Source: Escherichia coli (GTDB lineage: Bacteria > Pseudomonadota > Gammaproteobacteria > Enterobacterales > Enterobacteriaceae). From it: DNA of 64,000 nt. Made by a program: the position numbers and the translations under genes. Under the pieces are notes generated by a model. The model searched no databases. It saw nothing but the letters and a program-made list of their open reading frames with translations, and had not been told where the DNA came from. Shown piece after piece: positions 3,256 to 21,383 of this stretch (within the stretch, counting starts at the first letter, position 1; each line of letters starts with the position of its first letter). The stretch is from the NCBI RefSeq assembly GCF_046105845.1, contig NZ_CP151004.1; one strand, 5' to 3'.

Positions 3256-3798
3256 ATGAAAAAAATTGCGCTAGCAGGTCTGGCCGGAATGCTGTTGGTT
3301 TCTGCATCGGTCAATGCAATGAGCATCAGCGGCCAGGCGGGTAAAGAATACACCAATATTGGTGTCGGTTTTGGGACTGAATCGACGGGCCTGGCGTTAA
3401 GCGGTAACTGGACACATAACGACGACGACGGTGACGTCGCGGGCGTGGGGCTGGGGTTGAATCTGCCTCTCGGGCCGTTAATGGCGACCGTTGGCGGAAA
3501 AGGCGTTTACACCAACCCGAATTACGGCGATGAAGGTTATGCCGCAGCGGTAGGAGGTGGTTTGCAGTGGAAAATTGGCAACAGCTTCCATTTGTTTGGC
3601 GAGTATTACTACTCTCCGGATTCGCTCTCCAGCGGTATTAAAAGTTATGAGGAAGCGAATGCGGGCGCGCGTTACACCATTATGCGTCCAGTGAGTATTG
3701 AGGCGGGCTATCGCTACCTGAACCTTTCTGGTAAAGACGGTAACCGCGACAACGCCGTGGCTGACGGCCCGTATGTTGGGGTTAACGCCAGTTTCTGA
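3256..3798 (+). CDS. yfaZ: Small outer-membrane protein YfaZ
   Basis: ATG at 3256 gives 180 aa with signal peptide MKKIALAGLAGMLLVSASVNA and a glycine/aromatic-rich beta-barrel-like sequence. Confidence 0.8.
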   Translation: MKKIALAGLAGMLLVSASVNAMSISGQAGKEYTNIGVGFGTESTGLALSGNWTHNDDDGDVAGVGLGLNLPLGPLMATVGGKGVYTNPNYGDEGYAAAVGGGLQWKIGNSFHLFGEYYYSPDSLSSGIKSYEEANAGARYTIMRPVSIEAGYRYLNLSGKDGNRDNAVADGPYVGVNASF

Positions 3799-17406: not shown

Positions 17407-17626
17407 TGCTATTGCAGGATGGCGTTCATGCGCCATCCTCTGCTAAAGCGAAATAATGCTACTTCCGGTTGTTCTATTCATTAACCGGTGCATCCTGTTA
17501 AAAAAGATGCCAACATATTTGCATAAAACTCATTCGTTAAGAAAGCTAACACTGGGCATTGTTATTCCTTAAACAGTATGAATTGGGTTCAATAATAAAT
17601 TGTATTGCAGTTTATACTGTAAAGTA

Positions 17627-18697
17627 TTATTCGCATTTCGGGAAAGTAAAGAAAATATTAATGTATCTTATTAATTTATTATATTGTTCTTGAGTGAATG
17701 CTATTTGCACACCTTCAGGATAATATTCACCAGTAATAACCAGTTGTCCATTGCTGTGTTGTACCATTAAACCTTTTTTTTCCTTTGGATCTTCAAACTT
17801 AGAATTATCAAACGTGAAGATGTTATTTTCCTGTTTTGAGTAAGCAAAGAAATCTCGTGTATAGCTGAAACTATCATTTATTAATGGTGCTAACTTTTTG
17901 TCGGCGATATCGATAAGCTCACCACTTAATTTATTGATGTATTTCATTTGGTTCAATTTTTTCTGCGCTTGTACAATTTGCTTGTAGGTATTTTTAATTT
18001 CCTTAGAAGAATTCTTGAATTTATCATAGCGTTCCACGGAGGATGCGTATTTGTACCATTCTGTATTTTTCTCAGAATGTAGTAGCAGGTCTGTATATTT
18101 TTTTTGATCGCTGTAAAGTTGACTTTTAATACTTTCCTCACTGCTGGTTTTATAAGGTTTATCAGAGCTGTTTATTTTTGAAATGTCTTTTTCTGTCGGT
18201 GACTGGACCGTGTTGTGGATATTTTCTTTTATAACATGTTCATTGATGATGTTAATTGCAGTTTCATATTCATTTAAGTTTATTGTTCTTTGTGAAATAA
18301 ACCCTTCTTTGCTTTCGACACTCAAAATACCTTCGTTGTTTTCACCTCGGGTAAAGGTAAGGGTATAGGGTTCATAATCCGCTGCAAATTCATTTTTATA
18401 CGTTATGACATGTTCGACAAAATGTCTTATTGGTACGAAACCATAACTGTGAACGTCAATTTTTTGGGTCTTGATACTATCAATTGCATCTGAGGCTTTC
18501 GTGAAAAAAGCCAATAAATTAGCTATGCTGTCTGCTGAAGTTGATAACCCGTATCTACTTTGAGATATTTTTAGAAACTCATCGCAAAAAAACTCAAGTT
18601 TCGCGGTTTGTTGTGATTCTTTGTAAATTTCTGCTGGTTGCAATTTATTATTTTGTAAAATATTACAGCGAGATAAGTGAATAGATGTATTTGGCAT
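17627..18697 (-). CDS. Hypothetical protein, 356 aa, AT-rich, no recognisable domain
   Basis: Long intact ORF; first ATG at 18697 preceded by AAGGAATCATTT (SD); the track ORF begins at an upstream TTG. Base composition by eye is roughly 30-35% G+C against about 50% in flanking genes. No signal peptide, TM helix or catalytic motif recognised. Confidence 0.6.
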   Translation of the reverse strand: MPNTSIHLSRCNILQNNKLQPAEIYKESQQTAKLEFFCDEFLKISQSRYGLSTSADSIANLLAFFTKASDAIDSIKTQKIDVHSYGFVPIRHFVEHVITYKNEFAADYEPYTLTFTRGENNEGILSVESKEGFISQRTINLNEYETAINIINEHVIKENIHNTVQSPTEKDISKINSSDKPYKTSSEESIKSQLYSDQKKYTDLLLHSEKNTEWYKYASSVERYDKFKNSSKEIKNTYKQIVQAQKKLNQMKYINKLSGELIDIADKKLAPLINDSFSYTRDFFAYSKQENNIFTFDNSKFEDPKEKKGLMVQHSNGQLVITGEYYPEGVQIAFTQEQYNKLIRYINIFFTFPKCE

Positions 18698-19162
18698 AAA
18701 TGATTCCTTGTATTGTGAGTTAACAAGATACAATCTAATCTTTGCAAAATATATTCACTATCAAATTTAGCTCATTTTATTACGAAGACCTTTACGCATG
18801 GTAGAAAGTATCATTATTGTTAATAAATACGGTAATAAGTAACAAACAGATATTGATAACTTCCCTGAAAAGTTACTAGGTATCCCACTTGAAGATTGAG
18901 AATGGCTCCAGAGTAAACTGTGTACTGTTCGCCGGAGTGTCATTACTCTCAACGATCGGTTTTGACAGTGAGTCGGGCGCTTCATACCGGTTTCTACCTG
19001 GAGTCATTGTCACTTCTCCCAACTGGATAAATATATATCGCCAATTCACAAAGTGGGCCAAAATCAGGTGAAAACGAATTATTACGCCTGGTAAAGGCTA
19101 TAGTACAACTAAGTGTGGCGAATCAGGCAGTCTTGCATTTGTCATCAATCTCATGTCTTACA

Positions 19163-20041
19163 TCAAATTTTTCCACTCACCACGAGTTGTTCCGTACACG
19201 TTTGTAGTAAAAACAGTGGACTGCCTTCTACCGGCTTTTCTTTAGCCAGCAACGAAATCTGTCGATAGAAGGTTGGTTCGAGAGGAACGGAACACAATTC
19301 ATCTGCAATGGTTTTCAGCGTTAACTCTGGTAATAAGGCGATGCCTAATCCCTGTCGAATAAAACTGATCGCTGTATCCGGGTGATTAAATTCATATTTT
19401 ATCTGTGGGGTAATATTCTTTTCTTTAAATAGTGCCATAATGCTTAATTCATAGCGTCCTTTACTAATAATTAATGGTTCACCCATTAACTCTTCCACTG
19501 TAATAGTGCTGTTTTTTGCCAGAGCATGGTTGGGCGGTAACACTACGGTGAATTTATCCTGATAAATGGGCACGGAGTACATTCCGCTCACCGGAAAATG
19601 AACAAAACCGGCATCAATGGATTCATTCTGAAGGGAATCAATAATCGCTGTGCTATTTTCCTCAAAAGGAATAATTTTTATATTCGGATGATGAATTTCA
19701 AAGTAGCGAATCACAGCCGGTAAGATACAGGCGCAGACGCTGGGGAAACAACCAAGTCTCAGCGTTCTTTGAGGGTTCTGCTTTTCCTGCTCGGCTATCT
19801 CTTTTACTGCGTTCACTTCCCGATTAATGGCGCGCAGATGATGCATAATGCGGTGACCTGCAGAGGTCAGTTGTATAGCTTTACGGCGATCGCGTAACAG
19901 TATATTCACGCCAAGTTCTTGTTCGAGGGCAGCAATTGCCTGACTTACCGCCGACTGCGTCATGAACAATCGCTTGCTGGCTTCAGTAAAGCCACCGTAA
20001 TCCAGCACGGCGAGTAAAGAATTTATTTGGGTAAGAGTCAT
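19163..20041 (-). CDS. LysR-family transcriptional regulator
   Basis: 292 aa; N-terminal HTH LTQINSLLAVLDYGGFTEASKRLFMTQSAVSQAIAALEQELG; divergent from the adjacent MFS gene. Confidence 0.85.
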   Translation of the reverse strand: MTLTQINSLLAVLDYGGFTEASKRLFMTQSAVSQAIAALEQELGVNILLRDRRKAIQLTSAGHRIMHHLRAINREVNAVKEIAEQEKQNPQRTLRLGCFPSVCACILPAVIRYFEIHHPNIKIIPFEENSTAIIDSLQNESIDAGFVHFPVSGMYSVPIYQDKFTVVLPPNHALAKNSTITVEELMGEPLIISKGRYELSIMALFKEKNITPQIKYEFNHPDTAISFIRQGLGIALLPELTLKTIADELCSVPLEPTFYRQISLLAKEKPVEGSPLFLLQTCTEQLVVSGKI

Positions 20042-20192
20042 TAGAGTTTGCTAATCAATAATATTAAAACGATTAATTTCTCTAATAGCATGCCGCCATT
20101 TATACTTCTGTTCTGCAAAGTACATCACAATTTGACGCAACCGCAGTAACGGGAGTGTTGTCTGCGTGCGTCATCCTGACAGGCGGTAGGGT

Positions 20193-21383
20193 ATGAAAGA
20201 GAAGTTATGGACGAAGGATTTTTGGGCAATAACCATCATCAGCTTTATTATTTTCTTCGTCTTTTATGTTTTACTAACATTGTTGCCAATTTATATCTCT
20301 GACCGCTTGCATGCCTCTCCTGATAAAGCCGGTTTATTGGTGACTTTATTTTTAATTGCCGCCATTGTTATTCGCCCATTTGCCGGGCAATGGGTGGGTA
20401 AATACTCGAATAAAACTATTCTGGTGCTCTCTTCTCTGGCCTTTTTATTGGTCACAGCGTTGTATCCTTTTTGCCACTCAATTGAATCACTGCTTTTTAT
20501 TCGGGTGCTTCATGGTATTACCTTCGGGGTTATCACTACGGTAAAAGGAACGATTTCCGCGCGGCTGATCCCGGCCTCCCGACGTGGGGAGGGCATCAGT
20601 TTTTTCTCTCTGGCAATGGGGCTGGCAATGGTGGTCGGGCCGTGGATTGGCCTGAATATGGCGCGCTGGGAGGCCTTTAATATGGCTTTCTGGTTATGCA
20701 CCGGCGTGGCAGCGGTGGGGATTATTCTGTCGCTGATTATGACAGTGCCGCCGGTTATCAGCCATGCTGATGGTTCAACGCCGAAAATGGGCTTCGCCGC
20801 CATGTTCGATCGCGCGGCGTTGCCATTTGCGATGGTCACCTTTTTTATGACCTTTTCGTATGCCGGGGTTTCTGCTTTTCTGGCGCTTTATGCACGCGAA
20901 CTTAACCTGATGTCGGCAGCCAGTAATTTCCTGCTTTGCTACGCTATCTTCCTGATGATTTGCCGTACCTTTACCGGCAATGTCTGCGACAAAAAAGGAC
21001 CGAAATATGTGGTTTACCCTTGCCTTGTGTTCTTTACGGTAGGACTGGTGGTTCTCGGCTACACCCAGGGAAGCATAATGATGGTTGTTTCTGGCGCATT
21101 GATTGGTATCGGGTATGGTTCCGTGACGCCAGTTTTTCAGACGCAGATTATCAGTTCAGTGGAACCGCATAAAATCGGTGTCGCAAACTCCCTCTTCTTC
21201 AATGCGATGGATGCAGGCCTGGCGCTGGGAGCCTTTGTGATGGGGATGATGGTTGCACATACTGGCTACCGAATGATTTATCTGCTGGGTGCACTATTAG
21301 TGGTGGTGGCTGGTGGAGTCTATGCGCTGCAAATGAAGGGTAAAAGCGGTGTCGCGCTAGTAGTGGCAAAAGAAATTCATTAA
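20193..21383 (+). CDS. MFS transporter (probable LysR-controlled efflux/uptake pump)
   Basis: 396 aa with about 12 hydrophobic segments; divergent from the LysR gene. Confidence 0.8.
   Translation: MKEKLWTKDFWAITIISFIIFFVFYVLLTLLPIYISDRLHASPDKAGLLVTLFLIAAIVIRPFAGQWVGKYSNKTILVLSSLAFLLVTALYPFCHSIESLLFIRVLHGITFGVITTVKGTISARLIPASRRGEGISFFSLAMGLAMVVGPWIGLNMARWEAFNMAFWLCTGVAAVGIILSLIMTVPPVISHADGSTPKMGFAAMFDRAALPFAMVTFFMTFSYAGVSAFLALYARELNLMSAASNFLLCYAIFLMICRTFTGNVCDKKGPKYVVYPCLVFFTVGLVVLGYTQGSIMMVVSGALIGIGYGSVTPVFQTQIISSVEPHKIGVANSLFFNAMDAGLALGAFVMGMMVAHTGYRMIYLLGALLVVVAGGVYALQMKGKSGVALVVAKEIH

Follow-up and report, generated by a model that had tools for sequence, protein, structure and literature searches.

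The question raised by this locus is whether a LysR-type regulator gene and the MFS transporter gene transcribed divergently from it form a self-contained sensor and exporter circuit, and whether a palindrome in their shared spacer serves as its operator. The pair lies in the window (the whole 64,000-nucleotide stretch of Escherichia coli DNA that was analysed, from contig NZ_CP151004.1) as follows:

19163..20041, minus strand: LysR-type transcriptional regulator (LTTR), 292 aa; EHEC Z3495 ortholog and full-length form of the K-12 pseudogene yfaH
20042..20192, no strand: shared intergenic control region, 151 bp
20193..21383, plus strand: 12-helix MFS transporter, 396 aa; EHEC Z3494 ortholog

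The divergent arrangement claimed in the original prediction is real: the 151-bp spacer separates two genes whose products have the corresponding Pfam domains, and they have this orientation in each of the 26 loci where both could be scored. The literature already describes the pair: it is O-island 97 (OI-97; z3494, MFS; z3495, LTTR) of EHEC O157:H7 EDL933, the subject of a study by Wang et al. (2024, Microorganisms 12:140, PMC10819331). Published lambda-Red and cloning primers map uniquely to the window: those for knockout and cloning of z3495 at 20039-20079 (exact), for z3494 at 20153-20192 (one mismatch), and for deletion of OI-97 at 21277-21316 (two mismatches). O157:H7 has the same genes at the same glpQ-inaA site (in the order glpQ, hypothetical gene, LysR, MFS, inaA), and the module is 96.5-97.3% identical to O157:H7 genomes, whereas the window comes from another E. 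coli lineage and is closest to non-O157 strains (99.4-99.9% identical). Searches by gene name, locus tags and protein accessions found no literature on the function of the pair besides PMC10819331.

The regulator has two characteristics of the LTTR family: an N-terminal HTH_1 domain (residues 3-63, E 4e-18, 65.6 bits against a Pfam cut-off of 26.6) is combined with a C-terminal LysR_substrate domain (residues 88-267, E 9e-37, 126.9 bits against 28) in a 292-aa protein, and the gene has a divergent neighbour with a T-N11-A dyad within the shared spacer. Regulator residues 226-292 correspond to positions 2-68 of the 68-aa NCBIfam YfaH equivalog NF007272, which was passed with 144.7 bits against a cut-off of 139. 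None of the named LTTR equivalogs (GltC, CidR, AlsR, CynR, HcaR, CysB, OxyR and others) passed at the curated NCBIfam cut-offs; the best full-length matches, to GltC, CidR, AlsR and CynR, reached 119-129 bits against cut-offs of 277-430 (score/cut-off pairs 129.4/350, 125.8/415, 122.4/430 and 119.2/277). The closest solved structures are CysB, BenM, CatM and OxyR. The regulator is full length (289-295 aa) in 19 orthologs, among which identity drops to 61% while the recognition-helix stretch MTQSAVSQAI stays near-invariant. A cysteine pair, Cys98/Cys103, is conserved in the effector domain (GCFPSxCA) and, as speculation, would allow a thiol-reactive or electrophilic ligand.

The transporter matches Pfam MFS_1 (E 2e-59, 201.7 bits against a cut-off of 33.4), and its hydropathy profile has the twelve peaks in 6+6 arrangement of a 12-TMS MFS protein. 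Similar to YfcJ/YhhS-type exporters and NorA, and a possible drug:H+ antiporter of the DHA1 type, it has twelve helices, motif B in TM4 (LLFIRVLHG, residues 100-108) and a motif-C-like GP sequence in TM5 (GLAMVVGPWIG, 143-153); motif A is degenerate in the first half of the protein (GQWVGKYSNK) and good in the second half alone (GNVCDKKGPK). Every one of its best family matches is an exporter scoring below cut-off: a YfcJ/YhhS-type subfamily, an arabinose exporter, CntE, MxcK and Cmx; this includes PRK05122 (full-length alignment, E 5e-32, 110.9 bits against 374) and PRK12382 (84 against 364). An MFS_YfcJ domain has been reported for the z3494 product (PMC10819331). Judged by its sequence, the transporter resembles the YfcJ/YhhS subfamily, but by NCBI thresholds it is not a member, and scores so far under the subfamily cut-offs make no substrate transferable.

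Among solved structures, the transporter is best matched by NorA (over TM1-6), and a sugar efflux transporter is also among the top PDB matches. In a scan of 1.84 billion cluster representatives, the nearest relative outside the enterobacterial ortholog group has 55% identity, and those after it have 37% or less. The nearest (L033, from a low-GC organism) has a divergent LTTR neighbour, but that LTTR is only 24% identical and the spacer lacks the motif; a relative with 37% identity (L034) has no LTTR neighbour. The transporter is probably a proton-coupled exporter, a prediction in which direction and substrate are guesses, all family scores being far below curated cut-offs. The homology search against characterised exporters advised in the original prediction thus returned exporter relatives, all of them sub-cut-off and generic across NCBIfam, the PDB and the cluster representatives, with no specific substrate; nor do the neighbouring genes in Enterobacteriaceae (glpQ, yfaE-nrdBA and inaA) point to any pathway. 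Its caution that effector and substrate could not be assigned was justified, as neither the family models nor the solved structures assign either protein specifically.

The spacer carries the elements on which the regulatory argument depends:

20063..20077, no strand: central dyad ATTAA-N5-TTAAT (ATTAAAACGATTAAT), proposed main LTTR binding site and best-conserved window
20040..20055, no strand: upstream dyad ATTAG-N6-CTAAT, proposed second LTTR site with a putative role, overlapping the LysR start codon at about -65 from the predicted MFS start
20072..20086, no strand: overlapping dyad ATTAA-N5-CTAAT, shifted rightwards by one helical turn relative to the central dyad, with overlap of the predicted -35; role putative
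20078..20106, plus strand: predicted MFS promoter, with a weak -35 TTCTCT (20078-20083), a 17-nt spacer and -10 TATACT (20101-20106)

The palindrome that the original prediction had singled out as a candidate LTTR recognition element is located exactly at 20063..20077 and contains T-N11-A (T20064 ... A20076); it is the single exact copy of ATTAA-N5-TTAAT in the 64-kb window, against 0.09 expected. Its conservation in orthologous loci, which had been set beforehand as a test that could refute the idea, is near-complete, while the rest of the spacer diverges with indels. In 25 orthologs spanning E. coli to Leminorella the palindrome is exact or differs at one or two bases, and it is the top-ranked 15-bp window of the spacer, with a mean column identity of 0.96 compared with 0.66 for 20087-20192 in 25 non-redundant orthologous spacers. 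The proposed operator motif in pattern form is ATTAAAAYGATTAAT. An alignment of the spacers of 28 orthologs has zero indels from the LysR start codon to the -10 hexamer at 20106 and many downstream. The upstream dyad has conserved arms around a 6-nt spacer that is free to vary; the dyad at 20072..20086, also recorded as inverted repeat I1, has one mismatch to the palindrome pattern, and its half-site CTAAT (20082-20086) is conserved.

The predicted MFS promoter is the most widely conserved sigma-70-like arrangement of the spacer, present in 21 of 25 orthologs. Its -10 hexamers hold TAnnnT (TATACT, TATAAT, TATTAT, TATCAT, TATGAT, TAGAAT) and the sequence between the hexamers varies, while the distance from the palindrome to the -10-like hexamer is 23 nt in 24 of 25 orthologs, with an offset of one base in Pseudocitrobacter. 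Transcription of the MFS gene is predicted to start near 20113. A stricter consensus scan for promoters and terminators found nothing in the spacer; the conserved promoter surfaced only through the multi-species comparison. Over 19900-20350, Rfam gave a single implausible sub-threshold match (Yar_1, 23.7 bits against 50) and no RNA element in the leader, and single-sequence folds of the leader in 19 orthologs gave no consistent structure.

With a probability of about 0.68, the pair is a self-contained module of a LysR-type sensor and an exporter, in which the LTTR operator serves both autorepression and ligand-dependent activation of the exporter promoter. A regulator tetramer would occupy about 47 bp (20040-20086) carrying the three dyads (ATTAG-N6-CTAAT, ATTAA-N5-TTAAT and ATTAA-N5-CTAAT), which are about one or two helical turns apart. 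As the block begins at the regulator's own start codon, autorepression is expected, the bound protein hindering its own transcription. The right end of the block lies on the weak -35 of the conserved rightward promoter, and the dyad centres, at about -65, -43 and -34 from the predicted start, may represent a recognition site and two alternative activation sites. Binding of a small-molecule effector would shift the promoter-proximal dimer, allowing RNA polymerase to transcribe the MFS gene, and proton antiport by the MFS product would carry the inducer, or a related compound, out of the cell. The gene identities, their arrangement, the conservation of the sites and of the promoter hexamers and the K-12 deletion are established. 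We infer that the LysR protein binds the dyads and that it activates and does not repress, and likewise the start site, export as the direction of transport, and the ligand.

In classical divergent LTTR systems such as BenM/benA, CbnR, OxyR and CysB, the recognition site is near -65 and the activation sites are at -35 to -45, and regulation is described by a sliding-dimer model; a weak -35 overlapped by a site is typical of activator-dependent promoters. The pair has in common with these systems a wHTH and LysR_substrate protein of about 300 aa, a divergent target, a T-N11-A dyad, several in-phase dyads within about 50 bp and a proximal site that overlaps a weak -35. It differs from them in that no LTTR family model was passed and in that the best-conserved dyad is at a predicted -43 instead of -65, the usual high-affinity LTTR position; this counts against the model and may mean that a site has been misassigned or the start mispredicted. 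The poor -35 of the MFS promoter and the empty result of the consensus scan also count against it, as does the location of the AT-rich conserved block by the start codon, where it could reflect the regulator's own promoter elements.

The alternative that survives best, although it is rather unlikely, is that Z3495 is chiefly a distal (global or virulence) regulator that acts on rcsF and so on the LEE, the sites in the spacer serving autoregulation only and the MFS gene not being controlled. Deletion of z3495 lowers LEE expression, adherence and mouse colonisation, and deletion of z3494 has no effect (PMC10819331), from which it follows that some effects of the regulator bypass the transporter; EMSA and ChIP-qPCR evidence for Z3495 has been reported on the rcsF promoter (PMC10819331). 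However, genera without attaching-effacing pathogens also conserve the pair and the operator, which excludes LEE control as the ancestral role, and the operator lies at its fixed distance from a conserved promoter directed towards the MFS gene. No operator-like site with two or fewer mismatches was found in the rcsF EMSA probe, where the best match has three; this suggests that the conserved primary target is the local promoter. The ChIP enrichments are only 1.17-1.8 (log2), with many in rRNA and highly expressed genes, and no rcsF row was found in the published table (PMC10819331). The coordinates of this table appear to be those of K-12 and not of an O157 chromosome; the OI-97 spacer apparently could not be scored there, and the table is then uninformative about the local site. 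In the published z3495 deletion, the mutant retains the operator and the MFS promoter because the homology arm is 20039-20079.

Less probable still is that the AT-rich block is not a LysR operator, and is instead the core promoter or UP-element of both genes or the site of another protein (for example, a nucleoid-associated one). The block is AT-rich and located where the regulator's own promoter must be, and 9 of 25 orthologs have a minus-strand -35/-10 candidate (ATTAGA ... TATTAT) with its hexamers on either side of the palindrome. Against this, conservation tracks dyad symmetry, the arms being kept while the N6 of the first dyad is free; repetition with a phase of about 10 bp is a signature of protein dimers, unlike promoter hexamers; and the motif fits T-N11-A and is co-conserved with the recognition helix of the regulator. 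A chance palindrome in an AT-rich spacer, which the window's sequence alone would allow (a perfect 5-N5-5 palindrome occurs in 14% of dinucleotide shuffles of the 151-bp spacer, and one with a spacer of 3-9 nt in 58%), is effectively refuted by its near-invariance across genera in which the regulators are 61-81% identical and the surrounding spacer has diverged; conservation across orthologous spacers is what places the palindrome above chance.

The proposed sensor-exporter module has a different history from the one published for it. OI-97 has been described as laterally acquired (PMC10819331). Among matching E. coli genomes, the pair is chromosomal and never on a plasmid (1232 of 1232), nearly always single-copy and found in at most two places per genome. 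It is full-length in every locus scorable for both genes (L001, L003 and L005-L029), representing about ten genera (Escherichia, Salmonella, Citrobacter, Kluyvera, Klebsiella, Superficieibacter, Phytobacter, Pluralibacter, Pseudocitrobacter and Leminorella), and occupies the same site in other genera; STM2280/STM2281 are presumably the locus tags of this pair. In E. whittamii and a cryptic-clade strain, the identity of the pair (86-87%) parallels that of the flanking glpQ (88-89%). Lateral acquisition was rejected on the grounds of the chromosomal location, the synteny across genera and the divergence matching that of glpQ. Contrary to the published account, the pair is ancestral and syntenic across Enterobacteriaceae, which has consequences for the interpretation of O-islands.

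The suspicion that the module is broken in K-12 was well founded, as MG1655 has the pseudogene yfaH (b2238) between inaA and glpQ, with a deletion of 1880 bp bounded by a short repeat:

19398..19405, no strand: left 8-bp direct repeat TTTATCTG, the K-12 deletion junction, where BLAST segments end and start
21278..21285, no strand: right 8-bp direct repeat TTTATCTG, where the published OI-97 deletion primer ends

K-12-type genomes lack the 1880 bp between the two copies of TTTATCTG, their junction reading ...ATTTTATCTG joined directly to CTGGGCGCAC..., and the K-12 locus can be aligned to the left and to the right of the deletion. The N-terminal 211 LysR codons, the entire spacer and MFS codons 1-362 were lost. 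What remains in K-12 as yfaH, at the same glpQ-inaA position, is the C-terminal part of this LysR gene, whereas both genes are intact in the window.

The module is not a new kind of system, and the gain is modest. A broader interpretation, offered as a long shot, is that enterobacteria have long used the Z3495 family to sense a small molecule from the gut or the host, with the adjacent exporter as its primary conserved output, that virulence control in EHEC is indirect or a side effect specific to that lineage, and that repeated deletions have removed the circuit from about 78% of sequenced E. coli. Z3495, a published virulence regulator, gains a candidate operator and, in z3494, a candidate primary target, and OI-97 is to be interpreted as an ancestral module lost in K-12-type strains by microhomology deletion rather than as an acquired island.

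The window is chromosomal E. coli DNA, and the genes here run in the order glpT, glpQ, a hypothetical gene of low GC content, the LysR gene, the MFS gene, inaA and yfaE-nrdB-nrdA. The original prediction, of a LysR regulator divergent from an MFS transporter with a palindrome in the shared spacer, was exact in its coordinates for all three when ORFs, domains and the 151-bp spacer were checked, and in every locus that could be scored for both, the MFS gene is preceded by a full-length LysR gene transcribed divergently from it. The features of the locus are:

17627-18733, minus strand: ORF for a hypothetical protein (356/368 aa) in the low-GC segment
19163-20041, minus strand: LysR gene, 292 aa, with HTH_1 and LysR_substrate domains
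19398-19405 and 21278-21285: direct repeats TTTATCTG at the ends of the K-12 deletion
20040-20055: dyad ATTAG-N6-CTAAT, arms conserved and N6 free, overlapping the LysR start codon
20042-20192: 151-bp spacer between the LysR and MFS genes
20063-20077: palindrome (dyad ATTAA-N5-TTAAT), ATTAAAACGATTAAT, containing T-N11-A
20072-20086: dyad ATTAA-N5-CTAAT, overlapping the palindrome
20078-20083, plus strand: candidate -35 (TTCTCT/TTTACT), followed by a 17-nt spacer of variable sequence
20101-20106, plus strand: candidate -10, keeping TAnnnT (TATACT, TATAAT, TATTAT, TATCAT, TATGAT, TAGAAT)
20193-21383, plus strand: MFS gene, 396 aa, with an MFS_1 domain

In the single window sequence the palindrome is not more than chance would provide: 14% of dinucleotide-shuffled spacers contain a perfect 5-N5-5 palindrome, and 58% contain a perfect palindrome if 3-9 nt are allowed between the arms. 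Orthologous loci were therefore gathered in one scan of the genome collection with an MFS alignment, which yielded 26 loci. The pair occurs in Escherichia (including E. whittamii and cryptic clades), Salmonella (arizonae, diarizonae), Citrobacter, Kluyvera, Klebsiella spallanzanii, Superficieibacter, Phytobacter, Pluralibacter, Pseudocitrobacter and Leminorella, adjoining yfaE and, wherever that flank is available, glpQ. The palindrome is almost unchanged among these orthologs (ATTAAAAYGATTAATTT), with a mean column identity of 0.96 versus 0.66 for 20087-20192 in the spacer alignment, and it ranks first among the 15-bp windows of the spacer. Because it is near-invariant while LysR orthologs outside Escherichia are 61-81% identical, its conservation in orthologous loci, chosen beforehand as the point on which the prediction could fail, favours a genuine site.

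From the LysR ATG to position 20106 there are no indels in any ortholog, and downstream they are frequent. The comparative scan found a single widely conserved sigma-70-like candidate promoter, on the plus strand in 21 of 25 orthologs, and its distance to the palindrome is 23 nt in 24 of 25, Pseudocitrobacter being off by one base. Relative to a predicted start near 20113, on which this geometry rests, the three dyads would be centred at about -65, -43 and -34, and the proximal one would overlap the weak -35. In the sliding-dimer model, LTTRs (LysR-type transcriptional regulators) use a recognition site and two activation sites, a layout that the dyads would match. The best-conserved dyad is the one at about -43, not the one at -65. 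In the recognition helix of the regulator, the stretch MTQSAVSQAI is kept almost unchanged across 19 orthologs, which is consistent with a conserved operator. Within the predicted 5' leader of the MFS gene, a block ATCACA is conserved at 20124-20129 (its TCACA core is invariant), as is GCGYGCC...CAGG at about 20163-20183, immediately 5' of the start codon; this leader yielded neither a consistent RNA fold nor an Rfam match, and no CRP-type dyad in it was convincing.

The regulator scores below every named LTTR model (the best full-length matches, GltC, CidR, AlsR and CynR, reach 119-129 bits versus cut-offs of 277-430), and the proteins of solved structure related to it are generic (CysB, BenM, CatM, OxyR). 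The transporter has twelve segments (6+6) by hydropathy; motif B lies in TM4, and TM5 holds a GP sequence that is motif-C-like. Its full-length alignment with the YfcJ/YhhS-type subfamily scores 110.9 bits, short of the cut-off of 374; its other family matches are exporters (arabinose exporter, CntE, MxcK, Cmx), and NorA and a sugar efflux transporter rank top in the PDB. A search of 1.84 billion cluster representatives places the nearest MFS protein outside the ortholog group at 55% identity and the remainder at 37% or below. The divergent LTTR beside this nearest relative is unrelated (24% identity) and lacks the motif, so gene context offered no clue to the substrate. The best estimate is a proton-coupled exporter whose inducible expression would be controlled by a ligand-responsive LTTR. 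At the start of the effector domain, LysR residues 97-105 (about 19727-19753, minus strand) carry GCFPSxCA, in which Cys103 is invariant and Cys98 is kept in 18 of 19 orthologs. Cysteines at this pocket-lining position are unusual among LTTRs; speculatively, they might hint at a thiol-reactive ligand.

A single paper bearing directly on the locus came up in the full-text search (Wang et al. 2024, PMC10819331). It treats O-island 97 (OI-97) of EHEC O157:H7 EDL933 as a region of 2006 bp whose two ORFs are z3494, encoding an MFS protein that has a YfcJ-type domain, and z3495, encoding an LTTR. The published primers map uniquely to 20039-20079 (exact), 20153-20192 (1 mismatch) and 21277-21316 (2 mismatches), establishing the identity of the locus as OI-97. 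Deletion of z3495, unlike that of z3494, is reported to lower LEE expression, adherence and mouse colonisation (PMC10819331). Z3495 was also reported to bind the rcsF promoter (PMC10819331), a distal target about which there are two reservations. The rcsF EMSA probe (L032, 959-1281) contained no match to the conserved palindrome with fewer than 3 mismatches, and no rcsF row was seen in ChIP-seq Supplementary Table S4 of that paper. The 97 peaks in the table have a log2 enrichment no higher than 1.17-1.8, and many of them fall in rRNA and highly expressed genes. Its "glpQ" peak lies at 2,351,168, compared with 2,349,935-2,352,374 for glpQ/glpT of MG1655, and its highest coordinate is 4.47 Mb; O157 strain WS4202 has glpQ near 2.95 Mb. 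The coordinates fit K-12 MG1655, not an O157 chromosome, although the methods name EDL933. Since a K-12-like reference lacks the OI-97 spacer, the published ChIP data are silent on local binding.

The suggestion that the module is absent or broken in K-12 was borne out by alignment of that region: K-12-type genomes lack exactly 1880 bp bounded by the 8-bp direct repeats, which joins the final 81 LysR codons to the final 34 MFS codons and leaves the MG1655 pseudogene yfaH (b2238) between inaA and glpQ. In this it is typical of a microhomology deletion. At least 80% of the deleted segment is present in 1216 of 5426 complete E. coli genomes (22%), always on the chromosome and nearly always in single copy (at most two places per genome). 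Sampling the ranking at even intervals suggests that about 57% bear the K-12-type scar and about 20% lack any trace, glpQ then being followed directly by inaA, as in locus L004.

Lateral acquisition of the pair, as read by PMC10819331, is unsupported because the pair occupies the same site in other genera, because in E. whittamii and a cryptic-clade strain it diverges about as the flanking glpQ does (86-87% and 88-89%, respectively), and because further independent losses exist: Citrobacter gillenii (L030, 2-199) retains only the last 66 codons of the MFS gene, adjoining yfaE, and some E. coli genomes (H41, H42) have partial matches. The LysR match of Kluyvera genomosp. 3 (L014) is broken into two frames at one point near 3638, which suggests a frameshift; these decay events outside E. 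coli, in C. gillenii and Kluyvera, are independent. It is the 1.7-kb segment between glpQ and the LysR gene (17440-19150, roughly 32% GC), not the pair, that looks acquired. Of 5426 complete E. coli genomes, 1045 have this segment, O157:H7 and O55:H7 among them; IS1 splits it in some, and it is missing from K-12, E. whittamii and cryptic-clade strains; its hypothetical protein had no match in Pfam, NCBIfam or PDB. Among the loci compared (L005-L028), only those of Escherichia and Pseudocitrobacter have inaA between the MFS gene and yfaE; the MFS gene directly abuts yfaE in Salmonella, Citrobacter, Kluyvera, Klebsiella and the other genera, and inaA is therefore the later arrival. E. coli O169:H41 (L003, 3974-6207) has a mosaic allele of 19163-21383: its MFS protein is 99.2% identical to that of the window, its LysR protein only 84.5%, and its spacer, which has an insertion of 13 bp, resembles the Salmonella/Citrobacter type. 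This implies that recombination broke the allele near the MFS start; the candidate operator and -10 are still conserved. A 3474-base contig of a metagenome-assembled genome labelled Collinsella sp. (Actinobacteria; L029) is 99.1% identical to this E. coli locus and almost certainly a binning contaminant.

The observation is thus confirmed, and computation, as far as it reaches, supports its interpretation. The module is an ordinary LTTR/MFS pair that already has names, OI-97 and, in K-12, yfaH, and has been studied in part. The present analysis adds a candidate operator and promoter with good support, the exact extent of the K-12 deletion, and evidence for an ancestral origin of the "island".
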